NCBI GenBank assembly: GCA_965202605.1
Contig: OZ241838.1
Location: 905,431-969,430, forward strand
Length of the DNA: 64,000 nt
Direction: 5' to 3'
Source: a bacterium
GTDB taxonomy: Bacteria > JAAXHH01
Shown: positions 3,507-12,923 of the stretch, one piece after another
How positions within the stretch are numbered: position 1 is the first letter of the stretch
Layout: the number at the start of each line of letters is the position of its first letter
Notes under the pieces: model-generated
Told to the model about the DNA's origin: nothing
Seen by the model: only the letters and a program-made list of their open reading frames with translations
Database searches by the model: none
Program-made: the position numbers and the translations under genes

Positions 3507-4274
3507 ATGCGCATCGTTCAGCTTTCCGATCCCCATATCGTGCCGGCGGACCGGCAGCCCGTACACGGCCAGGACACGCTGAGACGACTGCGTGCCGCCG
3601 TAGAGGCGGTAAACCGGTTGATCCCCGCCCCCGATCTCGTCGTCATGACGGGCGATCAGATCAACGACGGATCCGAAGATTCCTACCGGGCCTTAAAAGA
3701 TCTCCTTCCCTCCCTTCGTTTTCCCTGCCGAATGGCCATGGGAAACCACGATTACAGACCAGCCTTCCGCCGGGTCATGCTGGAAGAGTCCGGAGCGGAT
3801 TCGGCCCCGTACTACTACGCCCTGGACCGGGTCGGCCACCGGATTATCGTGCTCGATACCCAGGACGAAGGGGAGGTTGCGGGAAGGCTTGACGATGCGC
3901 AACTGAACTGGCTGGAACAGGAGCTGTATTCCGGCCTTCCTTCCGTCATCTGCATGCATCATCCCCCGGTACCCGTGGGCGTCGACTGGATGGATGAACT
4001 GATTCTCCAGGACAGCGGCCGGTTTCTCCGGATATGCGAAAACCGGCCTTCGTTACGGCTGATCCTGTGCGGTCACGTGCACTACGACTTTCACATGAAA
4101 CTGGGGCATGCGACTGTCCTGACCGCACCGAGTGTGGGCCTGCAGTTCCGGAAGGACCCCGTGACAAAGGCGGACGGCACCCGCGTCATAGCTACCGACG
4201 AGCCGGCCGCGTTCCGACTCGTCGATCTGGACGGACCGGACTGGACGACCTCGATACACCGACTCACCCTCTAA
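3507..4274 (+). CDS. Calcineurin-like metallophosphoesterase (Icc/CpdA-like phosphodiesterase)
   Basis: SDPH, TGD, GNHD, HHPP and GHVH motifs. Confidence 0.88.
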   Translation: MRIVQLSDPHIVPADRQPVHGQDTLRRLRAAVEAVNRLIPAPDLVVMTGDQINDGSEDSYRALKDLLPSLRFPCRMAMGNHDYRPAFRRVMLEESGADSAPYYYALDRVGHRIIVLDTQDEGEVAGRLDDAQLNWLEQELYSGLPSVICMHHPPVPVGVDWMDELILQDSGRFLRICENRPSLRLILCGHVHYDFHMKLGHATVLTAPSVGLQFRKDPVTKADGTRVIATDEPAAFRLVDLDGPDWTTSIHRLTL

Positions 4275-4297
4275 ACGCGCACTACCGGACCGAGTAC

Positions 4298-5974
4298 ATG
4301 CTGATCGATGATCTGAGGGAGATACAGGCGCGTCACGGCTATCTGCCCGATGAGGAACTGAAATCCCTGTCGGAACGCAAGGGCATTCCGCTTTACGAAG
4401 CCCACGGCGTGGCCAGTTTCTATCCTCATTTCAGGCTGGAACCTCCTCCTGAGGCCACGCTTCGAGTCTGTACCGATCTCTCCTGCCATCTCCACGGCGC
4501 CTGCGACGTGCTCGAGACCCTGCGGGAAACCGTGGACTATGCCGGGCTGGACCAGTGGGAGGTGAGCGGGACGTCATGCCTCGGACAGTGCGACGGCGCG
4601 CCGGCGGTGTCGATCAACGATGGCAGCTACCGGGGCATGTCGGTGGATCGGCTCGCCAGATTCGTCGCCCGTCTCGCAGACAATGGGAAGATCGGCCGCC
4701 AACCCTTCAGACGCCGGACCAACCCGGGGCTCATCGATCCCTATGATCATCCCCTGGCCGCCGAGTCCCTGAAACAGTGGGTTTCCGGCGGTGATGCGGT
4801 CCGGCTCGTGCAGACCATCAGGGATAGTGGCCTGCGCGGCATGGGCGGAGCCGGATTCCCGGCCGGCGTCAAGTGGGATCTGGTCAGAAAAACGGAATCC
4901 GAGGTCAAGTTCGCGATCTGCAACGCGGATGAGAGCGAACCCGGCACGTTCAAGGATCGCGAAATCCTGTACCACTACCCCCATCTCGTCATCGAGGGGG
5001 TGACCCTGGGCGGACTCGCCGTCGGCGCGAACCAGGGATACCTGTTCCTCCGGCACGAGTACGACCGGGAACGGGAAGTGCTCGAGAAGACCATCAGGGC
5101 GTTCTACTCGTCAGGATACCTGGGCGACGGCATTTTGAATTCGGAACGATCGTTTCACCTGGAGATCTTCGACAGTCCCGGCGGATACATCTGCGGCGAG
5201 GAAACGGCCCTGCTCGAAGCAATGGAAGGGAAACGGGCCGAACCCAGGAACAAGCCGCCCTTTCCGGGCACGCACGGTCTGCATGGCAGGCCCACGCTCA
5301 TCAACAACGTCGAAACTTTCGCCTGGGTGCCCGCCATTCTGCAGCGTGGCGCCGACTGGTTCCGGACCGAGGGAACAAACGGCGCTTCGGGACGCAAGTA
5401 CATTGCCCTCAGCGGTCATGTCGAAAGACCGGGGGTCTATGAAATCGCGCTCGGGACGCGGGTATGCGATCTCATCCGCGACTACGGCGGAGGCGTCAGC
5501 GGGGGCCGTAAGCTGAAAGCCTTCGCGCCGGGCGGAACTTCATCGGGTTTCCTTCCCGCGTCCATGGCGGAGATCCCCCTTGATTTCAAACCGCTTGCAG
5601 ATGCCGGATCCATGCTGGGATCCGGTGCGGTCATCGTCGTAGCCGAGGGCACCGGTATGGTGGACCTGGCCCAGAACGCGGTAACCTTTTTCCGCAACGA
5701 ATCCTGCGGCAAGTGCGTGCCCTGCCGGACGGGTACGGAGCACCTGGTGCATATGCTTGACGCCGTGCTCGAAGGAAACGGCCGGTCCGGTACGCTGGAA
5801 CCCGTGACGGACATTGCCGAAGCCATGGAACTCACCTCCATCTGCGGCCTCGGCCAGGCGGCGGCGCTGCCGCTTACCTCCGCGCTCAGGTATTTCCCGG
5901 ACGAATTCGAGCCCCCCCGCCGGCATGCCGCGACCCGCCGGGGGGAGGAAGCCGGAGGCGGTTCGGATGAGTAG
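4298..5974 (+). CDS. NAD-linked formate dehydrogenase beta (diaphorase) subunit; NuoE-NuoF fusion
   Basis: N-terminal 2Fe-2S NuoE module (CTDLSC, CLGQCDGAP) followed by NuoF motifs GLRGMGGAGFP, NADESEPGTFKDR, YICGEETAL and CGKCVPCR...ICGLG. Start at ATG 4298. Confidence 0.88.
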   Translation: MLIDDLREIQARHGYLPDEELKSLSERKGIPLYEAHGVASFYPHFRLEPPPEATLRVCTDLSCHLHGACDVLETLRETVDYAGLDQWEVSGTSCLGQCDGAPAVSINDGSYRGMSVDRLARFVARLADNGKIGRQPFRRRTNPGLIDPYDHPLAAESLKQWVSGGDAVRLVQTIRDSGLRGMGGAGFPAGVKWDLVRKTESEVKFAICNADESEPGTFKDREILYHYPHLVIEGVTLGGLAVGANQGYLFLRHEYDREREVLEKTIRAFYSSGYLGDGILNSERSFHLEIFDSPGGYICGEETALLEAMEGKRAEPRNKPPFPGTHGLHGRPTLINNVETFAWVPAILQRGADWFRTEGTNGASGRKYIALSGHVERPGVYEIALGTRVCDLIRDYGGGVSGGRKLKAFAPGGTSSGFLPASMAEIPLDFKPLADAGSMLGSGAVIVVAEGTGMVDLAQNAVTFFRNESCGKCVPCRTGTEHLVHMLDAVLEGNGRSGTLEPVTDIAEAMELTSICGLGQAAALPLTSALRYFPDEFEPPRRHAATRRGEEAGGGSDE

Positions 5975-8798
5975 CGGGGAAGTAACGCTGACGATCGACG
6001 GCAGCAGAGTTGCCGCGCCGGAAGGAACCACGATATGGGAGGCTGCCCGGTCGGCGGGTATCGACATTCCCACCCTGTGCCACGATCCCAAACTGCAGCC
6101 GGTCGCCGTCTGCCGCGTGTGCGCGGTCGACGTCGAAAACTCCCGCGTCCTGCCCGCGGCCTGCATCCGCCAGGTTGAAGACGGCATGGTGGTGCGCACG
6201 GACACGGAACGGGTGCGTCGCGCGCGCCGCACCCTGGTGGAACTGCTCCAGGCCCGACAACCTCCTGAGGACAAACGGCGCAAACCGCCGACGCAGGACG
6301 AACTGGCGCTACTGGGCGGACTGCTGCAATCGGAACCTGGACGGTACGCGTCAACCTGTTCGAACCCGGCGGTGGAGCGGGACCTGTCCTCGCCCGTCAT
6401 CGCGGTGGACCACGACGCCTGCATCCTGTGCGACAGATGCATCCGCGCCTGCGACGACGTCCAGGTAAACGACGTAATCGGCCGCGCCGGCAAGGGGTGC
6501 GATACCCGCATCGCCTTCGATAACGACCTGCCCATGGGGCAATCCTCCTGCGTCGCCTGCGGCGAGTGCGTGGCCGCGTGCCCTACCGGCGCGCTGACGG
6601 ACCTCCCCATGGTGGACACGGGCCATGGGACCGCTGCAACCGCATCAGGGAAAGTCGATTCGGTGTGCCCCTACTGCGGCGTGGGTTGCGGTATCACGTA
6701 CCATGTACAGGACAACAGTATCCTAAAAGTGACGGGGCGGGAAGACACCCATACCGAGGGCCGGCTTTGCGTCAAGGGCAGATACGGCTACGACTATACC
6801 CACCATCCGCAAAGGCTGCTGAAACCGCTAATCAGAAGGGAAGAAGCCTATCCGAAGCGGCCGCTCTCGGCGGACTTCCAGGATTACCGGGAGTTCAGGC
6901 GCTCGCTGAGGTCGCCGGAATGGAACGACCGCATACGGGAAGTGTTCCGTGAGGCCGAATGGGACGAGGCGCTGGACCTGGCGGCCCGCCGGTTGCTGGA
7001 AATCAAGCACACGAAAGGACCTGGCGCGCTGGCCGGCTTCGGGTCGGCCAAAGTCACCAATGAGGAAGCCTACCTGTTTCAGAAGCTGATCCGCGTCGTC
7101 TTCGGTACCAATAACGTCGACCACTGCACGCGCCTCTGCCACGCGTCCTCCGTGGCGGCCCTCACCGAGGCCATCGGGAGCGGGGCGGTCTCAAACGCCT
7201 TTCAGGAGGTCCTCGAAACCGACGTCATCTTCGTAATCGGGTCCAATACGGAAGACAATCATCCCGTGGCCGCTTCTTATATGAAACAGGCCGTAGACCG
7301 CGGCGCCAGGATGATTGTCCTCGATCCCCGGCGGCCGACCATCGCCGACCACGCCACCCGGTACGTACGGTTCAAGCCGGGTACCGACATAGCGTTGCTC
7401 AACGGAATGATGCACGTGATTCTGCGCGAAGGGCTGCAGAACGATGGCTTCATCGCACAGAGGACGGAAGGCTTCGACGCGCTCGAACCGGCCCTGCGGC
7501 CCTATACGCCCGAAACAGCTTCGAAGATCACCGGCGTCCCCGCTTCGGTGATCGAAGAAATCGCCGTCGAATACGGCCGCGCACGGAGCGCGATGATCTT
7601 CTGGGGCATGGGGATCAGCCAGCATGTCAACGGCACGGACAATGCCCGGGCGCTGATCTCCCTTTGCCTCATGACCGGCAACATCGGACGTCCGGGCACG
7701 GGCCTGCACCCGCTGCGGGGTCAGAACAACGTCCAGGGCGCATCCGACGTGGGGCTGATTCCGCGATTCTATCCGGGTTACCAGCCAGCGGACGATCCGG
7801 ACGTGCGGAAGCACTTCGAAAAGGCCTGGGGCGCCCCGCTCGACCCGCAATCAGGTCTGACGGTCGTGGAAATCATGCACGGCGCCCTCGACGGCGGCAT
7901 CGAGGGCATGTTCATGATGGGCGAGAACCCCTTCCTTTCGGACCCGAACATGAACAAGGTCCGGAAGGCCCTTCAGAAACTGTCATTCCTTGTCGTACAG
8001 GACATCTTCCTGACGGAGACCGCCGAGTTCGCGGACGTGATCCTGCCTGCTTCCACCGCGGCGGAGAAGCGGGGCACCTACGTCAATACGAACCGCATGG
8101 TGCAGATCGGAAGAAAGGCGCTCGATCCTCCCGGCGAAGCCCGCCTGGACGGAGATATCCTGGTGGATCTGGCCAACCGGATGATCCGCATGGAGCAGGG
8201 AGGGCACGGTACGTGCTGGGACTACGACGGGCCGGAAGCGGTATGGGAGGAAATCATCTCGCTGACGCCGATCTTCAAGGGGATCACCTACGAAGCGATG
8301 GAAAGGGAAACCGTGGTCTGGCCCCTGGGAGAGCCGGTACTGTTCACCGACTCGTTTCCCCTCGGTAGAGGCGGGTTCACGCCCGTATCCTTCGCGCCGC
8401 CCGATGAGCTGCCGGACGAGGCGTATCCCTTTGTCCTGAACACCGGCCGGGTACTGCAGCACTGGCACACGGGCACCATGACGCGCCGCGCCCGGGCCCT
8501 CGACACCATTTCCCCGGAGCCCTTCGCGGAGCTGACGCCCCGGGACCTGGCACGCCTGGGCGTCGAAGACGGAGACCTGGTGGTCGTCACCTCCCGCCGC
8601 GGCGCCATCACGCTTAAATCGAAGTCCTCCACCCGCGTGTCCGACGGCAACGTCTTCATACCCTTCCACTTCAAGGAAGCCGCCGCCAACGTCCTGACCA
8701 ACGACGCCCTCGACCCCGACGGAAAGATCCCTGAATTCAAGTACTGCGCGGTGGCGGTGGAAAGCGCGGTATCAAGCGGGCAGGGACTGCCTTTCTGA
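5967..8798 (+). CDS. fdhF: Formate dehydrogenase alpha subunit (Mo/W-bisPGD, Cys-ligated)
   Basis: IPTLC...CRVC 2Fe-2S, CILCDRC/CVACGEC 4Fe-4S, CPYCGVGC, VDHCTRLCHASS, PLRGQNNVQG and KIPEFKYCAV. Start at ATG 5967. Confidence 0.92.
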   Translation: MSSGEVTLTIDGSRVAAPEGTTIWEAARSAGIDIPTLCHDPKLQPVAVCRVCAVDVENSRVLPAACIRQVEDGMVVRTDTERVRRARRTLVELLQARQPPEDKRRKPPTQDELALLGGLLQSEPGRYASTCSNPAVERDLSSPVIAVDHDACILCDRCIRACDDVQVNDVIGRAGKGCDTRIAFDNDLPMGQSSCVACGECVAACPTGALTDLPMVDTGHGTAATASGKVDSVCPYCGVGCGITYHVQDNSILKVTGREDTHTEGRLCVKGRYGYDYTHHPQRLLKPLIRREEAYPKRPLSADFQDYREFRRSLRSPEWNDRIREVFREAEWDEALDLAARRLLEIKHTKGPGALAGFGSAKVTNEEAYLFQKLIRVVFGTNNVDHCTRLCHASSVAALTEAIGSGAVSNAFQEVLETDVIFVIGSNTEDNHPVAASYMKQAVDRGARMIVLDPRRPTIADHATRYVRFKPGTDIALLNGMMHVILREGLQNDGFIAQRTEGFDALEPALRPYTPETASKITGVPASVIEEIAVEYGRARSAMIFWGMGISQHVNGTDNARALISLCLMTGNIGRPGTGLHPLRGQNNVQGASDVGLIPRFYPGYQPADDPDVRKHFEKAWGAPLDPQSGLTVVEIMHGALDGGIEGMFMMGENPFLSDPNMNKVRKALQKLSFLVVQDIFLTETAEFADVILPASTAAEKRGTYVNTNRMVQIGRKALDPPGEARLDGDILVDLANRMIRMEQGGHGTCWDYDGPEAVWEEIISLTPIFKGITYEAMERETVVWPLGEPVLFTDSFPLGRGGFTPVSFAPPDELPDEAYPFVLNTGRVLQHWHTGTMTRRARALDTISPEPFAELTPRDLARLGVEDGDLVVVTSRRGAITLKSKSSTRVSDGNVFIPFHFKEAAANVLTNDALDPDGKIPEFKYCAVAVESAVSSGQGLPF

Positions 8799-8885
8799 AG
8801 CATGTGACGCCACCGGCCATAGTCCGGTTGCATACTTCCCTCCAAACCCCTTTTCTGCCTGGCGCCAGACCTTCAGCAGCGTCTT

Positions 8886-8912
8886 TGAAACTCTTACGTC
8901 CAGGTATTCGTA
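8886..8912 (+). promoter_or_regulatory. Putative ECF (SigW-type) autoregulatory promoter TGAAAC-N17-CGTA
   Basis: TGAAAC at 8886-8891 and CGTA at 8909-8912, ending 8 nt before the sigma ATG. Resembles the Bacillus SigW consensus TGAAAC...CGTA. Confidence 0.55.
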
Positions 8913-8920
8913 GTAGTGGT

Positions 8921-9454
8921 ATGAACTCGACCGAAGGCAGCCAGCGCACGCCGGATCAGGATTTCGACAAGACCCACCGAACGCATTACCGGCGGATTCT
9001 CGCACTCTGTCGATATCTTCTGAAATCTGTCGATGATGCCGAGGACGCGACCCAGGAAGTCTTCTTCCGCGCATACCAGAAGCGTTCGACCGTCGACCGT
9101 TCGAAGTCGTACCTGAACTGGCTTTTGAAAATAGCCACCAATCATTGTCTTGACCAGTTACGTCGCCGGAGCAGCGAGGCCAGGATCTATGAGTCCATCG
9201 ATCCCGACCGGATAGGCCCTTCCCGGGTATCCGAGGATACGCTCGATTTTCTGGTCCGCGCAGAAAAGGGCGAACGGGTGCGGTCCGCGATACAGTTGCT
9301 CTCAGACAAATACCGCGTACCGCTCGTACTGGCCTACTATAACGAGTTCACCTACGAAGAAATCGGCGAAGCGCTCGAACTGAACAGGAATACGGTAGCG
9401 ACGCTGATTTTACGCGCCAAGCAACGATTGCGAGAGGAGCTGAAGGGACTATGA
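8921..9454 (+). CDS. ECF RNA polymerase sigma factor (SigW-like)
   Basis: Region 2 DAEDATQEVF...WLLKIATNHCLDQLRR and region 4 YEEIGEALELNRNTVATLILRAKQRL. Start placed at ATG 8921. Confidence 0.9.
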   Translation: MNSTEGSQRTPDQDFDKTHRTHYRRILALCRYLLKSVDDAEDATQEVFFRAYQKRSTVDRSKSYLNWLLKIATNHCLDQLRRRSSEARIYESIDPDRIGPSRVSEDTLDFLVRAEKGERVRSAIQLLSDKYRVPLVLAYYNEFTYEEIGEALELNRNTVATLILRAKQRLREELKGL

Positions 9455-11097
9455 CGGACGAAAAGGTGCGCAGGAAGGATTGTCCATCTGAACTCAGTTG
9501 CTCGATGTACGCCGATGGCGAACTGTCCGGGGCCGAAGCACTCGAGTTCGAAGATCATCTGAACCGCTGCCCGTGGTGCCGGGATCTTGTGCGTGCGTTG
9601 AAAATGGAGCGGGATGCGCTCGTTGGAGCATTTGGAAACACCGAAGCCTTCCTGGCCGAAACGAATCCGGCCCATGCTCCTTCTCCAATCCATGCATTGA
9701 TATTGATGGGACTGGTCACGGTAGTCGCAGCTCTGCTGAGGTTGAATTTCGACTCGATTATGGGCCTGGAGCTACCCTGGGGCATAGAATGGCTCAGCCC
9801 GTTGCGCGTCACCGGACAGTTGTCTCTGATATTCAGTTCAGGGTTTTATTTCATCCAGGAAGGGGGCTCGATCATGGAATCACTGGTCAGCTATGCGGGT
9901 GTCGCCGCGCTAGCCATCATGTTGCTGTGTACTGTATTCGTCCTGGTACGAAGATCACCGGGGGTTTCGAAGTTGCTCGTATGCCTGGCCCTGACAGCGG
10001 GGTTGTCCGCTCCGGCGGAGGCCATCGAAACACGCTCCACCGGAAATGTCTCCATTGAAGCAGACGAGATCATTGACGACACGCTCATTGTCTTCGGCCG
10101 CACGGCCAGAATCGACGGCGTGGTGACCGGTGACCTGATCGTGTTCGCCCAGTCGATCGAAATCGCGGGTTCGGTCCACGGAGATGTCTTTTCTTTTGGA
10201 AGGAACGTCGAAATAGAGGGTGAGGTGGGCGGCGGGATCGCAGGGTTCGGACAGGTGATTCGCATCGGAGATTCCGTCGGTCAGAGCATCTATGGGTTCG
10301 GCCAGTCGATTCTCTCCAGACGGGACGCTTCGATCGGGGGAGATTTCTTTGCATTCGGAGACGATATCAACGTGGGCGGGTCGGTCGGCCGAAACGTGAT
10401 GGCGTTCGGCAACACCCTTACGGTAACGGGCGAGGTGAAGCGGGACGTTACTTTCTCGGGTAACCTGGCGGCCGTTCATTCGTCTGCGTCGATCGGTGGG
10501 AATCTCGACGTCGACCTGACGAACGCGGAAAACCTGCAAACGGATTCCACCGCGTCTGTAGCCGGCGAAACGATCGTCGAGTTACCGGAAGCGGACCGGG
10601 ACGAGGAAGATCCGCTGTCGGTCTGGACGTTCGTGCGCATGGCCCTGTGGCTGGCCGCGGCGTTCATATCGGGCATGCTGCTGCTCTGGGCGCTTCCGTC
10701 GCTGCGGCGCATGCCGCTGGACGACCTGCGCGCCATGCTACAGTCCGCGGGGGTCGGGTTCCTGGTGCTCATAGCGATGCCGGTTGCCGCGGTGCTGCTC
10801 TGCGTGACGCTCATCGGCCTGCCGGCCGGACTCGTGATGGCCGCCGTCTGGGCGTTGGGGCTGTACGTGTCCAAGATTGTCGTGGCGCACTTCCTGGGTA
10901 ACGCGTTGCTGCGACCGAAACAGCAGGATACGGGTTCCATGGCGCTGCCGTTGATCGTCGGGCTGGTACTGGTACTGATCGCCGTGAGCCTGCCCTATGT
11001 CGGTTGGATCGTCAACCTGCTCCTGGTCATCATCGGCCTGGGTGCGATTGGACTGGTCCTCTTCAGGTCCGCCAGGAGCCGTATGGCCGCGGCCTGA
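9451..11097 (+). CDS. Anti-sigma factor: zf-HC2/ZAS domain + TM segments + polymer-forming (bactofilin-like) beta-helix repeats + C-terminal multi-TM domain
   Basis: YADGEL...HLNRCPWC (HxxxCxxC), repeated IxGxVxGD/N units, and several hydrophobic C-terminal helices. ATGA overlap with the sigma gene. Confidence 0.8.
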   Translation: MTDEKVRRKDCPSELSCSMYADGELSGAEALEFEDHLNRCPWCRDLVRALKMERDALVGAFGNTEAFLAETNPAHAPSPIHALILMGLVTVVAALLRLNFDSIMGLELPWGIEWLSPLRVTGQLSLIFSSGFYFIQEGGSIMESLVSYAGVAALAIMLLCTVFVLVRRSPGVSKLLVCLALTAGLSAPAEAIETRSTGNVSIEADEIIDDTLIVFGRTARIDGVVTGDLIVFAQSIEIAGSVHGDVFSFGRNVEIEGEVGGGIAGFGQVIRIGDSVGQSIYGFGQSILSRRDASIGGDFFAFGDDINVGGSVGRNVMAFGNTLTVTGEVKRDVTFSGNLAAVHSSASIGGNLDVDLTNAENLQTDSTASVAGETIVELPEADRDEEDPLSVWTFVRMALWLAAAFISGMLLLWALPSLRRMPLDDLRAMLQSAGVGFLVLIAMPVAAVLLCVTLIGLPAGLVMAAVWALGLYVSKIVVAHFLGNALLRPKQQDTGSMALPLIVGLVLVLIAVSLPYVGWIVNLLLVIIGLGAIGLVLFRSARSRMAAA

Positions 11098-11126
11098 TGC
11101 GCCGATTCCCCGGTTTACCAGCGGCA

Positions 11127-11243
11127 CCATGCCGGCCGGACCGGCCCGACCGGCATGGCCTGACGTGGTCAGCCCGAGCAAGATACAAGAAGGGACGTTA
11201 CAGGTCGGTAACCGCGCGAGTCGGCATTGCGGCGCGCGCGGTT
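11127..11243. terminator. Two GC-rich hairpins between convergent genes (possible terminators)
   Basis: ccatgccgg/ccggcatgg (11127-11158) and aaccgcgcg/cgcgcggtt (11210-11243). Confidence 0.4.
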
Positions 11244-11257
11244 TCACGGGCATGTGC

Positions 11258-11898
11258 TCAGGAAGCGTCGTAGCCCGCCCAGAAGGCCCCGCCCCATTCG
11301 CTGCCGGCATCATCCCAGTCATCACGCCATGTACAGAGCCGGTTTCTCAGGCTGCGTAACTGGTCCTCGTAGGATGCGAACCCGGCCAGATCATGACGTT
11401 CCCAGGGGTCCTGTGACAGGTCGAACAACTGCGTGGTGCGGCGTCCGGACACTGTGGAAGCGTGCCGTCGTACCGGCCTTCCGGGTCGTAGTCGAAGACC
11501 GGCACGTTCCAGTGGTCGTCCATGCCCCCGAAGAAGATCTCGGCGCCATCAGAAAAACTGCGGGCGAACGACGAGGCGCCGTTATGCCATTTGCCCGTAC
11601 CCCAGGTGCGGTAGCCGCGGGACCCCAGGTATTCCCCGATCGTCACGTGTTCCGGAGGAATGTCCGCGCCGGCTCCGTCGAGGTGAAACAGGGTCCGCCC
11701 CGTGTGCAGCATCGCCCGGCTGGGCATGCATACCGCCGAGGTGCCCCCGGGTATGTGTGCGTGCGTAAACGCGGTGCCCCGGGACACCAGCCGGTCCAGC
11801 GACGGCGTATGCACGCATGGGTTGCCGAGTGCCCCTATCGTGTCGAAGCGCTGGTCGTCGGTGAAAAGGAACAGGACGTTTGGCGGTTTGCGAGACAA
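11258..11898 (-). pseudogene. Sulfatase (formylglycine-type) with an internal deletion and frameshift
   Basis: N-terminal part from TTG 11898 (GGAGG RBS): [27 protein letters not shown]. It joins near 11440-11450, in another frame, to a sulfatase C-terminus ([17 protein letters not shown]...). The central region is missing. Confidence 0.8.
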
Positions 11899-12191
11899 GA
11901 TGTTCCTCCCTCCCCGAAGCATCATCTCAAAATACCTGAACCCGGGAAAGATGCTCGAGGAAGATGTGATGAATGATTGAGCCTGGGCAGCGCCGTCGGG
12001 TAAACCGCCAATAAACCCGGCGCTGCCCGGCCAAGTCAAGACCGTTGGCGCCCGGCGCGGCAAACGGGGTTTGCACTACCAGCGCTTCGAACACGCCGCT
12101 ATATTGTAGGCTCGCACGTGCTTGAAATCGGTTCGCGGGTAGTCTAACGCGCTCGCCTGTCCGCCGCCGCGGGTTCTCACCAGAAAGCGGG

Positions 12192-12923
12192 TTGCCCATC
12201 AAAGGCGTCAAACTCTACCAGATTCGCGTGGACGACTTGGAGGTGGACGTCTACAGGAAGCGGATCAGGCACCTGTACCTCAGGGTGGGGCCTCCCGACG
12301 GGCGCGTCCGGGTTTCGGCCCCGTTCCACCTGGCCGATGAAGCGATCCGGAAGACCGTGGTCAAGCGGATGCCGTGGATCCGGCGGCAACAGGAAAAGCA
12401 ACGCAGCCGCGGTCCTGAACCCGACTACCAACTCGTTTCCGGTGAACGGCATTATGTAGAGGGAGTGAGCGTCCCGCTCAATGTCACGATCTATGACGGC
12501 CCGCCCGCCGTCTACCTGCTGGGCGGATCTACCCTCGAGATGCGGGTCCGTCCCGACACCGGCCTGCCTGAGCGCAGGGCCCTGCTCGCCAGGTGGTATC
12601 GCGATCGCCTGAAGTCCCTGGTGCCCGCGATGATCGCTGCCTGGGAGCCGGTAATGGGGGTCAGGGTAGCGGAATGGCGCATCCGGAAGATGAAGACCCG
12701 CTGGGGCACCTGCAACTGCCGGGCCGCCCGGATCTGGTTGAACCTGGAACTGGCCAAGAAACCCGTCCGGTGCCTCGAGTACGTGATCGTCCACGAGATG
12801 GCGCACCTGATCGAGCCTTCACACAACCGGCGGTTCTGGGGCATCCTCGACAAACTGATGCCGGACTGGCGGACGTACCGGGAAGAACTGAACCGGTTCC
12901 CGGATACGGATCTTGCCAGGTGA
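12192..12923 (+). CDS. YgjP/DUF45 family zinc metalloprotease-like protein (M48/SprT-like)
   Basis: MKTRWGTC, LEYVIVHEMAHLIEPSHNRRFW motifs. Start uncertain (TTG). Confidence 0.85.
   Translation: MPIKGVKLYQIRVDDLEVDVYRKRIRHLYLRVGPPDGRVRVSAPFHLADEAIRKTVVKRMPWIRRQQEKQRSRGPEPDYQLVSGERHYVEGVSVPLNVTIYDGPPAVYLLGGSTLEMRVRPDTGLPERRALLARWYRDRLKSLVPAMIAAWEPVMGVRVAEWRIRKMKTRWGTCNCRAARIWLNLELAKKPVRCLEYVIVHEMAHLIEPSHNRRFWGILDKLMPDWRTYREELNRFPDTDLAR

Follow-up and report, generated by a model that had tools for sequence, protein, structure and literature searches.

A SigW-like ECF sigma factor gene coupled to a gene for a zinc anti-sigma factor joined to a predicted exported beta-helix and a five-helix membrane domain

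Pairs of ECF sigma and anti-sigma factors are the commonest stress switches of bacteria, and for most groups of them the input is obscure. The locus described here lies in a stretch of bacterial DNA of 64,000 nucleotides (the window). It raises the question of what an anti-sigma factor that carries a long repeat domain and a second membrane domain might sense, and how it would let go of its sigma factor. We are confident that the two genes code for an ECF sigma factor and for a membrane anti-sigma factor with an exported beta-helix and a five-helix membrane domain, and that the two products belong together. The genes and the element that precedes them are as follows.

8886..8912, + strand: putative autoregulated ECF promoter, TGAAAC-N17-CGTA, whose -10 element ends 8 nt upstream of the ATG
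8921..9454, + strand: gene for an ECF (group 4) sigma-70 factor, SigW-like, 177 aa, assigned from Pfam, NCBIfam and a solved relative
9451..11097, + strand: anti-sigma factor gene, 548 aa, with the stop codon counted in the last domain

The two open reading frames are those described in the sequence-only reading. They overlap in an ATGA, with the ATG of the partner at 9451-9453 and the TGA stop codon of the sigma gene at 9452-9454, and Pfam matches to both products agree with the proposal of an ECF sigma factor translationally coupled to a zinc anti-sigma factor. The sigma factor matches Sigma70_r2 (56.5 bits) and Sigma70_r4_2 (47.8 bits), in keeping with ECF factors, which consist of the sigma-2 and sigma-4 domains only and measure about 170-220 aa, and a TIGR02937 (sigma70-ECF) score of 85.7 bits, with a cut-off of 42.9, places it in the ECF superfamily. 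Its top solved relative is SigW (5wuq_A, E 1e-19) and its gene is preceded by a SigW-type promoter motif, which fits its earlier description as SigW-like. Its scores for the SigW equivalog models (NF007223 / TIGR02948) are 91.6 vs 209 bits and 79.7 vs 243.1 bits, below both cut-offs. Judged by these matches, it appears to work like SigW without belonging to the SigW equivalog.

The promoter block is near-invariant across eight aligned relatives, and the start of the sigma gene at ATG 8921 is backed by a conserved ATG/GTG-AAC right behind it. The motif TG[AT]AA[CT]-N15-18-CGTA is found upstream of the sigma gene in 44/52 loci; both strands of these same 52 loci (1.04 Mb) hold 51 matches in all, the sigma-upstream ones included. 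The block probably acts as a promoter and sets the transcription start site. The transcript would probably be leaderless or nearly so, because the -10 element ends so close to the ATG. Across the genome, TGAAAC-N16-17-CGTA has 20 matches, with about seven expected from base composition. Besides the sigma factor's own, only two of them directly precede the start of an open reading frame, coding for a second ECF sigma factor and an aldo/keto reductase, and this genome-wide scan established no clear regulon. Scanning of positions 8600-11500 returned no sigma-70-type promoter and two terminator-like sites, no more than chance.

The 548-aa protein can be divided into five parts.

9451..9636, + strand: predicted cytoplasmic zinc anti-sigma (ZAS) domain, residues 1-62, with C11, H36, C40 and C43 (zf-HC2)
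9688..9948, + strand: TM1 (~80-104), conserved periplasmic loop and TM2 (~149-166), placed by hydropathy, alignment and charge counts
9949..10023, + strand: internal signal-peptide-like element, residues 167-191, with a predicted signal peptidase I site after A191
10024..10605, + strand: right-handed beta-helix (residues 192-385), predicted to be exported, with 17-19 residues in each of its nine to ten turns
10606..11097, + strand: five-helix membrane domain of the DUF8173 module in the AlphaFold2 model, residues 386-548 and the stop codon

The zf-HC2 model matches residues 19-44 with 32.3 bits (cut-off 22.2), a segment that spans the HLNRCPWC motif. Among 63 aligned sequences, H36, C40 and C43 are invariant and C11 is conserved at 90% or more. 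The family profile matches RslA (3hug_B, 3.7e-5), RsiW (5wuq_C, 1.9e-4) and DdvA (8rlz_A, 3.5e-4). The AlphaFold2 model of the domain has a pLDDT of ~80-86, and Foldseek relates it to ChrR with a probability of 0.97-0.99 at E 0.8-0.9. The protein has the hallmarks of class I ZAS proteins, namely HxxxCxxC with a Cys ahead of it, a helical domain at the N-terminus and a location at +1 of an ECF sigma gene. Homology and the conserved pairing of the genes argue well for binding of the sigma factor by this domain.

Hydrophobic segments follow at ~80-104, 149-166 and 175-186, together with a weaker helix at 120-136. The periplasmic loop between TM1 and TM2 carries WLNPL..GQLSL, with P117 conserved at 90% or more. 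Model confidence is low in this N-terminal membrane region (pLDDT 40-60). The earlier counts of 'several' TM segments, 'about 180 aa' of repeats and '4-5 helices' at the C-terminus are near the output of the prediction tools.

The repeats had been proposed to form a beta-helix, and the models agree. Residues 192-377 are predicted by AlphaFold2 as regular paired strands (pLDDT ~90), and VIA-align superimposes them on solved right-handed beta-helices at Z 12-17 (for HxuA, 4i84_B, Z 17.4 and rmsd 2.7 over 180 residues). Self-similarity of residues 205-380 peaks at a lag of 17 residues (z = 9.1 vs 300 shuffles), and the first turn carries the most conserved motif, GE(T/I)(I/V)DDT. This beta-helix is very probably exported, as the earlier reading had it, since the module to which it belongs also stands alone behind ordinary cleavable signal peptides. 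The distribution of charges obeys the positive-inside rule, with K+R counts of ~2.2 in the loop 167-174, 3.2 in the stretch 475-496, 2.2 at the C-terminus and 0 in the predicted periplasmic turns.

The five-helix domain, folded alone, gives helices at 391-414, 426-452, 456-486, 498-512 and 518-547 (pLDDT 90.9, pTM 0.79), with the conserved turns TLIGLP (453-458) and LPYVG (514-518) on the periplasmic side. Its alignment has conserved G, P and T columns and is devoid of conserved acidic, His or Ser residues. Searches for a solved homologue of this domain gave at best Z 6.5 over ~50 residues with VIA and nothing at E <= 0.001 with Foldseek, which likewise returned no match at that threshold for the whole model. 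Among named atlas clusters outside PF26514, PF04519 and PF13490, no usable match to the domain was found. These failed matches do not make the fold new.

Beta-helix and five-helix domain together correspond to the Pfam family DUF8173 (PF26514). This annotation is precomputed on 6/7 relatives at 82-90% identity and 98-100% coverage (P0003-P0006, P0008 and P0009; not P0007), and the protein is homologous to these carriers over its full length. The nearest atlas clusters, from Bacteria and Archaea, are named DUF8173 (scores 0.90-0.92; 67-83% of members with PF26514). They consist of DUF8173/Bactofilin proteins and are commonest in Chloroflexota, among others. Residues 185-548 match 5845 cluster representatives at E <= 1e-10, and 99 of the best 150 of these are fused zinc anti-sigma forms. 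In contrast, the typical DUF8173 protein has 330-400 aa and is secreted and anchored, with no anti-sigma domain. The 548-aa protein thus most likely arose by fusion of an anti-sigma unit with a DUF8173 module. A literature search returned no paper on the fused sigma/anti-sigma architecture and none on DUF8173, in line with the earlier statement that no functional characterisation was known.

The pairing of the fused gene with the sigma gene is conserved far beyond the window. The sigma gene lies directly upstream in 52/56 genome loci, the other four being three stand-alone modules and one locus with an unreadable upstream part. The 80 metagenome loci comprise 55 ZAS fusions with the sigma gene upstream, three fusions whose contig ends first, four undetermined loci, one odd locus and 17 stand-alone modules without a sigma gene; among the fusions that could be judged, the sigma gene is thus upstream in 55/55. 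In the genome of the window the gene is single-copy, and 25/27 further genomes of the genus contain it, in every case with an open frame (537-706 aa). MAGs with the fused architecture are labelled Latescibacterota, Gemmatimonadota, Acidobacteriota, Gammaproteobacteria and others; those that stand nearest among the named records carry the labels Latescibacterota or Gemmatimonadota. In the window, the gene pair has formate-dehydrogenase-like, sulfatase-like, YgjP-like and IleRS genes as its neighbours. Conservation of the flanking genes is confined to a close clade (L002-L019), and no conserved partner gene was seen in distant loci. The neighbours of the 17 stand-alone modules show nothing consistent and give no functional clue; a BrkB/YihY gene lies upstream of the stand-alone module in four loci, probably of one lineage.

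In a tree of the module (148 rows; P0218, P0242 and P0088 were dropped for short alignment), the labels 'fused' and 'short' are interleaved, with 38 changes vs a shuffled mean of ~41-42. Many short entries, which sit on short branches next to fused sister entries, are probably truncated gene calls, and the tree gives no reading of the number of fusion events. A metagenome scan with the 419-aa short form gave no matches. A second metagenome scan returned fused and signal-peptide forms and no trio of separate sigma, anti-sigma and module genes.

At the junction between the two units, residues 167-191 are laid out as a signal peptide, with an n-region (RRSPGVSK), an h-region (LLVCLALTAGL) and a c-region (SAPAEA). 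The mean hydropathy of the h-region is 2.36 and the K+R value of the n-region 2.67. In the 63 aligned sequences, position -1 (residue 191) is A in 62 and S in one, and position -3 (residue 189) is A, S, G, T or V in all. Small residues at -3 and -1 after an N-in/C-out helix, the pattern of a signal peptidase I site, are thus found in 63/63. A small-x-small motif followed by x-E/D-x-R/K occurs at the junction in 86/99 fused cluster representatives vs 44/395 control windows. In stand-alone homologues, the genuine N-terminal signal peptide stops at the matching point, ..AxA|(A)D/E-I-R... From these patterns, signal peptidase I may cleave after A191. The sequence-only reading had the beta-helix anchored at both ends; this holds for the precursor only, as the full conservation of the site after TM3 suggests that the N-terminal anchor may be cut.

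How does this protein compare with described systems? In the SigW group, ECF245, the anti-sigma factor is described as a zinc domain, one TM helix (in 97.69%) and a Bactofilin domain outside the cytoplasm (PMC7826278, Casas-Pastor et al. 2021). The contrast first drawn with RsiW was thus overstated, going by this group description. The novelty of the present protein lies in its polytopic DUF8173 module and not in the joining of a ZAS domain to a beta-helix. The likeness to Bacillus subtilis SigW-RsiW, the closest described system, otherwise extends to SigW as top solved relative, to a putative autoregulated promoter (-35 TGAAAC, -10 CGTA(T)), to an anti-sigma gene at +1, to a zinc domain that here aligns to RsiW and to extracytoplasmic Bactofilin-type repeats. 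The motif at 8886-8912 agrees with the ECF245 promoter (TGAAAC, CGTAT); the TGAAAC element is not unique to ECF245, as ECF116 and ECF256s1 are also described with it (PMC7826278). In contrast to the single TM helix of RsiW-type proteins, our protein has three N-terminal helices and a five-helix C-terminal domain. The one TM helix, the cdaA/cdaR/glmM context and the Bacillales origin that define ECF245 are not found here: the protein has about eight helices, the genes do not lie in a cdaA-cdaR-glmM context and the phylum is different. PrsW, the site-1 protease family of RsiW, was not found in the genome, which is 99.3% complete; M50 site-2 proteases are encoded at three loci. ECF25, a taxonomically broad group described with zinc anti-sigma factors of one to three helices (PMC7826278), was also considered as a home group, and its description offers no ground for a decision.

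The putative cleavage site invites a second comparison. Degradation of RsiV is reported to be begun by signal peptidase and gated by ligand binding (PMC6066255), and the same initiation is reported for RsiP (PMC8844934). As in B. subtilis SigV-RsiV and B. thuringiensis SigP-RsiP, a signal-peptidase-type site lies right after an N-in/C-out helix, beside an extracytoplasmic sensing domain. In contrast to these single-pass proteins, in which the cut helix carries the anti-sigma domain, the site here comes after the third helix. Pfam detects no match to DUF4179, the protective element of RsiV, in the 548-aa protein at E <= 1.

Taken together, the explanation that we favour, tentatively, is a self-regulated switch with the DUF8173 module as sensor and release by signal peptidase. 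The sigma factor would be made from its own SigW-like promoter abutting the start codon, and the N-terminal zinc domain of the 548-aa protein would hold it at the inner membrane. That protein would consist of an anti-sigma unit (ZAS domain, TM1, conserved periplasmic loop and TM2) and a complete DUF8173 module, the latter reporting some state of the periplasm or the membrane. Signal peptidase I would make the site-1 cut at its conserved site behind TM3, in the manner of RsiV and RsiP, and the fold or the ligand state of the module would gate this cut. Membrane and cytoplasmic proteases would then remove the three-helix stub and free the sigma factor. For the proteolytic release itself our confidence is lower: it is the likeliest release path, yet less likely than not; the occurrence of the cut, its regulation and the identity of the signal are all tentative. 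The position of the ZAS domain is a real weakness of this mechanism. The domain hangs on TM1; even if a cut behind TM3 and then a site-2 cut within TM3 took place, TM1 and TM2 would still anchor it, so that a classical two-step cascade fails to free it without extra extraction. As the N-terminal membrane region has a pLDDT of only 40-60, the models give no confident contact of the anti-sigma unit with the module.

A bolder extension, which we consider unlikely, takes the fused gene as the Rosetta stone of a three-part envelope switch of wide occurrence, with DUF8173 as a receptor that physically gates the anti-sigma factor and signal peptidase as a regulated site-1 protease acting on a polytopic one. 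To our knowledge, signal peptidase has so far been found in that role only for single-pass anti-sigma proteins of Firmicutes. If the extension were true, it would provide a first function for DUF8173, which has thousands of members in Bacteria and Archaea. The fusion ties this membrane-protein family to a defined output, the sigma factor's own promoter, and for that reason the function of DUF8173 could be tested with a simple reporter.

The alternative that survives best, although we would not expect it to be correct, is that signal peptidase always cuts after A191. This would yield a three-helix anti-sigma factor and a separate DUF8173 protein that stay bound, an end state shared with split three-gene systems. 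The signal would then travel through an altered contact of the two or through a different protease, not through the signal-peptidase cut. In its signal-peptide layout the junction lacks nothing that the stand-alone secreted modules have. As a point against a regulated cut, the conserved AxA may simply be a legacy of the ancestral module's signal peptide and may be cut constitutively. A split arrangement is in print: the group description of ECF247 (Chloroflexi) gives a two-TM anti-sigma factor at +1 and 'bactofilins' at +2 (PMC7826278). These are the same three components in the same order, with components two and three in separate genes there and in one gene here. Compared by group description only, the '+2 bactofilins' would be homologous to DUF8173, and the ECF247 arrangement reads as a split form of the fusion. 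The geometry also speaks for a cut, whether regulated or constitutive. In the model, the beta-helix is ~45 Angstrom long, begins ~7 residues past TM3 and stops ~10 residues short of TM4; with such short end linkers, the uncut protein would need to lay its nine to ten turns flat on the membrane. However, no confident contact between the two halves is predicted, and if the halves were always separated, there would be little evident reason to keep the fusion over several phyla, though a fixed 1:1 ratio would be one.

We give somewhat less credence still to a protein that is not cleaved at all, the arrangement nearest to the sequence-only reading. TM3 would then serve as a signal anchor that stays whole; the protein would be a polytopic anti-sigma factor of eight helices, its periplasmic beta-helix tied at both ends, and would signal through a conformational change that crosses the membrane. 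Signal-like helices inside polytopic proteins often stay uncut, and all 55 metagenome loci open to judgement keep the fusion intact. Polytopic anti-sigma factors do exist. NrsF/OsrA of ECF16 are described with six helices and periplasmic cysteines (PMC7826278), and a conformational signal of this kind has been proposed for NrsF. Like the protein studied here, NrsF of Caulobacter SigF-NrsF is an anti-sigma factor with several membrane helices, and signalling without the classical proteolysis of single-pass proteins has been suggested for it (PMC7826278). In contrast, it is a DUF1109 protein devoid of a zinc domain and a beta-helix, and no sequence relation to ours was seen. The conservation of the junction is hard to reconcile with a mere anchor, as -1 is A or S and -3 is small in 63/63 sequences while the rest of the helix is free to vary, and the short linkers at both ends of the beta-helix also oppose a double anchor.

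It is improbable that the zinc domain itself is the sensor, as a thiol/redox switch like that of RsrA, with the membrane and beta-helix parts only localising or stabilising it. C11, H36, C40 and C43 are all conserved, with a ligand spacing that we take to be like that of RsrA, and NCBIfam gives weak matches to ChrR (E 0.011) and RsrA (E 0.13), far under their cut-offs. However, conserved zinc ligands also occur in ZAS proteins that do not sense redox, the top profile matches are the membrane anti-sigma factors RslA and RsiW, and a conserved membrane and periplasmic part of ~470 residues would be left without a sensing role.

Finally, the earlier label 'bactofilin-type' did not stand, as it reflects only a weak likeness of repeats and fold. 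Bactofilins (BacA, CcmA; PF04519) share with our domain a right-handed beta-helix, short G-rich repeats and a weak sequence likeness. In contrast to them, the domain described here scores below the gathering threshold of PF04519 (18.2 bits vs 27.9), has ~9-10 turns and is predicted to be exported and membrane-tethered. Its fold fits any right-handed beta-helix and is closer to many unrelated ones (HxuA, HMW1, NosD); with the bactofilin 6rib_A, Foldseek gives a target-normalised TM score of 0.57 (probability 0.82, E 0.66). That it is a genuine cytoplasmic bactofilin polymerising under the membrane was already disfavoured and is hardly credible: its Pfam score, the 2/6 scanned relatives that pass the cut-off (34.4 and 39.2 bits; 4/6 are below) and the profile match to BacA (2n3d_A, E 6.3e-4) speak for it, but stand-alone homologues have a cleavable signal peptide directly ahead of the beta-helix, the positive-inside rule puts the domain outside, and a six-frame search of the genome with the Bactofilin model at E <= 0.01 matches only another gene, which codes for a separate, canonical bactofilin (83.6 bits).

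The sigma/anti-sigma pair is real, conserved and ordinary in principle, and its putative sensor module is uncharacterised and widespread. The two genes lie as follows:

8921-9454, + strand: ECF sigma ORF, 177 aa, with sigma-70 regions 2 and 4 only
9451-11097, + strand: anti-sigma ORF, 548 aa, with an ATGA overlap with the sigma ORF

The 177-aa protein scored above the cut-off of the ECF superfamily model. Its top equivalog scores were obtained with SigW models, yet far below their cut-off, and the nearest solved structure is that of Bacillus subtilis SigW (5wuq_A, E 1e-19). At the N-terminus of the 548-aa protein, zf-HC2 (Pfam) was found above cut-off. An alignment of 63 relatives shows no variation at H36, C40 and C43 and conservation of 90% or more at C11; among solved structures, the family profile matched the anti-sigma domains of RslA, RsiW and DdvA. 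The sequence-only reading of a sigma factor translationally coupled to a zinc anti-sigma factor is thus borne out by the gene overlap and both domain models. Its account of the membrane segments, repeats and C-terminal helices also proved accurate. Hydrophobic helices span residues ~80-104, 149-166 and 175-186 (TM1 to TM3), and the repeat region has a period of 17 residues (z 9.1). AlphaFold2 modelled the latter as a beta-helix with a pLDDT of ~90, which superposes on solved right-handed beta-helices with Z values of 12-17. Folded alone, the C-terminal hydrophobic domain forms five helices (pLDDT 90.9, pTM 0.79).

In a word-indexed collection, 115 relatives of the 548-aa protein were found at E <= 0.001, mostly of 530-580 aa. 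Their precomputed domains are zf-HC2 and PF26514 in most cases and Bactofilin in some; PF26514 corresponds to DUF8173, a name taken from a protein-cluster atlas. In species-representative genomes, a sigma gene is present upstream in 52 of 56 loci, and in 50 of these it ends no more than ~60 nt from the start of the match. For the other two, L056 and L057, the distance is ~600 nt, owing to a match that spanned the module alone; L056 is one gene with frame breaks. The remaining four genome loci comprise three stand-alone modules (L042, L051 and L052) together with a single locus that is unreadable upstream. The 80 metagenome loci include 55 forms in which the zinc anti-sigma (ZAS) domain is fused to the module, with a sigma gene upstream, three fused forms on contigs that end before the sigma position, 17 stand-alone modules without a sigma gene, four undetermined cases and an odd one (L073). 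Therefore, wherever this can be judged, the fused form is always paired with a sigma gene.

The window pair is preceded by NuoF-like and FdhA-like genes and followed by genes for a sulfatase-like protein, a YgjP-like peptidase and IleRS, the last named by eye. Such flanking genes are common to the close clade only, and therefore the conserved module is the two-gene sigma/anti-sigma unit. The anti-sigma gene is single-copy in its 3.97-Mb genome and is found in 25 of the 27 other genomes of the genus. A search with the 548-aa query did not find it in six genomes, as available, of other genera of the phylum. Several features of this region were noted in passing. The NuoF-like flavoprotein gene (4034-5974, + strand) overlaps the molybdopterin FdhA-like gene (~5970-8798, + strand); as a pair they resemble an NAD-linked formate dehydrogenase, and their synteny with the sigma locus is confined to the close clade. 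The G+C content drops to 0.54-0.56 at 9000-10000, over sigma and the initial third of the anti-sigma gene, vs 0.61-0.68 on either side. The sulfatase-like gene (11258-12063, - strand) looks split. Its 238-aa ORF (11347-12063), with relatives in 16 related loci, aligns with no more than positions 1-133 of the Pfam Sulfatase model, which has 301 positions; a second ORF (11258-11452), of 64 aa and in a different frame, resembles a sulfatase C-terminus by eye. The split may reflect a frameshift, a pseudogene or faulty assembly. The gene of the YgjP-like (HExxH) metallopeptidase (12192-12923, + strand), which lies two genes further on in the same orientation as the pair, is kept at this position in the close clade only.

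Searching 1.84 billion cluster representatives with residues 185-548 yielded 9939 proteins at E <= 0.001, 5845 at E <= 1e-10 and 673 at E <= 1e-30. Among the best 150 module representatives, 104 have at least 480 residues, 99 of them with an HxxxCxxC motif in the first 90 residues, and the other 46 are shorter than 480 residues. Fused and short database entries are not separated in the module tree, and truncation during gene calling seems to account for many of the short ones. DNA context identified true short forms in 17 metagenome and three genome loci. In these, the module begins no more than 60 residues from an in-frame stop or from its first start codon and is headed by a textbook signal peptide. 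This peptide ends in AxA immediately before (A)-D/E-I-R, a position that corresponds to A191|IETR of the 548-aa protein. Among 63 fused proteins, Lys and Arg residues are concentrated in three places, namely residues 167-174 (a loop), residues 475-496 and the C-terminus, and none occur in the pair of short turns predicted on the outer face. This distribution fits a topology with the ZAS domain inside, TM1 running outward to a conserved periplasmic loop, TM2 inward to a positive loop, TM3 outward, the beta-helix outside, and the five helices ending inside. Thus, the 548-aa protein appears to be an anti-sigma unit (ZAS, TM1 and TM2) joined to a whole DUF8173 precursor, signal peptide included. 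The fusion connects DUF8173 to a readable output. As a separate observation, four metagenome loci (L132, L133, L136 and L140), probably from one lineage, have a stand-alone DUF8173 gene directly 3' of a BrkB/YihY-family membrane protein gene, followed in three of them (L132, L133 and L140) by an RNase_H_2 gene.

If TM3 were a mere anchor, drift would be expected at its C-terminal flank; the alignment shows conservation instead. Position 191 is Ala in 62 of 63 sequences and Ser in one, position 189 is Ala, Ser, Gly, Thr or Val in all 63, position 193 is Glu or Asp in 60 and position 195 is Arg or Lys in 58. Among 99 fused representatives taken from clusters at 50% identity, 86 harbour the strict pattern small-x-small|x-E/D-x-R/K at the TM3 junction, vs 44 of 395 control windows, and the 13 others still have AxA-like ends by eye. 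In the predicted structure, the beta-helix starts ~7 residues past TM3 and stops ~10 residues before TM4. Since beta-helices usually rise by 4.8 Angstrom per turn, its nine to ten turns would measure about 45 Angstrom, and with such short linkers the model would force an uncut protein flat against the membrane. These conserved residues and this geometry make cleavage by signal peptidase I at the predicted site after A191 plausible, and the conserved internal site offers a clear experimental entry point.

We propose that the ZAS domain, as judged from homology and pairing, would hold sigma at the membrane, that the DUF8173 module would sense something in the periplasm or the membrane, and that the signal would lead to loss of the anti-sigma factor. 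The route that we favour is proteolysis beginning at the signal-peptidase site. RsiW is cut by the PrsW family, no member of which was found in the window's own genome (99.3% complete), and M50 site-2 proteases are present there. This argues for the proteolytic route, as do the conservation of the site and the precedents of RsiV, whose established site-1 protease is signal peptidase, acting at a site exposed by ligand binding (PMC6066255), and RsiP, for which it is likewise reported (PMC8844934). The weak point of this route is that the ZAS domain hangs on TM1: a cut after TM3 alone would leave the ZAS-bearing helix unexposed, and the route would then require an additional step of extraction or degradation. 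Constitutive processing by signal peptidase is a rival to which the conserved junction is equally suited. The protein might also act as an uncut polytopic sensor, which would impose the flat arrangement of the beta-helix. A third, unlikely rival, in which the ZAS domain is itself a redox sensor, would draw on its conserved His and Cys residues. As for the beta-helix being a cytoplasmic bactofilin, the likeness to bactofilins is at fold level only, and the window domain is below the Bactofilin cut-off and predicted to be exported. The genome has one canonical bactofilin elsewhere (83.6 bits, open frame of 156 aa), unlinked to the sigma locus:

G000:C1:2851576-2851869, - strand: canonical bactofilin gene (locus L058)

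In the five-helix domain, the conserved alignment columns include Gly, Pro and Thr, with no acidic, His or Ser residue among them; we therefore take it for a structural or signalling domain rather than an enzyme. Structure comparison gave no clear solved homologue. The motif of highest conservation in the beta-helix, the acidic GE(T/I)(I/V)DDT in the first turn, might, speculatively, bind a cation or cap the beta-helix.

The pair would work like SigW-RsiW, but its NCBIfam score places the sigma outside the SigW equivalog. The association of a ZAS with a bactofilin-like domain had been taken as unusual, wrongly so, since the ECF245 anti-sigma is described in exactly such terms, as a zinc domain and an extracytoplasmic Bactofilin domain (PMC7826278). 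The window pair departs from that group description in helix number, gene context and taxon. ECF247, in which a +1 anti-sigma with two helices precedes 'bactofilins' at +2 (PMC7826278), reads by its group description as an unfused version of the window arrangement. Anti-sigma factors with 1, 2, 6, 4 or 3 helices are counted in the main text of PMC7826278; in the supplement passages searched, 'eight transmembrane' is absent and 'seven transmembrane' is used only for sigma extensions. We found no description of a polytopic DUF8173 form with an internal signal peptide in that main text and those passages.

Among eight relatives, the 40 bases 5' of the sigma ATG are almost invariant, and those farther upstream are not. 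They contain:

TGAAAC at 8886-8891, 17-nt spacer, CGTA at 8909-8912, + strand: putative promoter, followed by 8 nt and then the ATG at 8921

The generalised motif TG[AT]AA[CT]-N15-18-CGTA is present 5' of sigma in 44 of 52 loci; both strands of these loci, 1.04 Mb in all, contain 51 matches, those upstream of sigma included. A gammaproteobacterial clade has the variant TGTAAT...CGTATTAC. Given the typical distance from the -10 element to the transcription start in ECF promoters, a CGTA only 8 nt before the ATG points to a leaderless or nearly leaderless transcript, and sigma would be autoregulated. The longer ORF starting at GTG 8804 is therefore unlikely to reflect the true sigma start. The window motif is the same as that of the SigW group in the ECF classification, TGAAAC / CGTAT (PMC7826278).

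A second ECF sigma of 220 aa, 32% identical to that of the window, is encoded ~50 kb upstream, outside the window:

G000:C1:864046-866945: second ECF sigma locus (locus L145, 1-3045)

Its promoter, TGAAAC-N16-CGTA with the ATG 9 nt on, is of the same kind. Its gene is followed by one for a zinc anti-sigma factor with a single membrane pass (305 aa) and one for a 432-aa HtrA-like protease, the latter named by eye. The two sigma factors may use promoters jointly or in competition. Also outside the window, an aldo/keto reductase ORF (321 aa; G000:C1:1173223-1174217, locus L143) begins 6 nt past a TGAAAC-N16-CGTA match and possibly belongs to the regulon of one of them.
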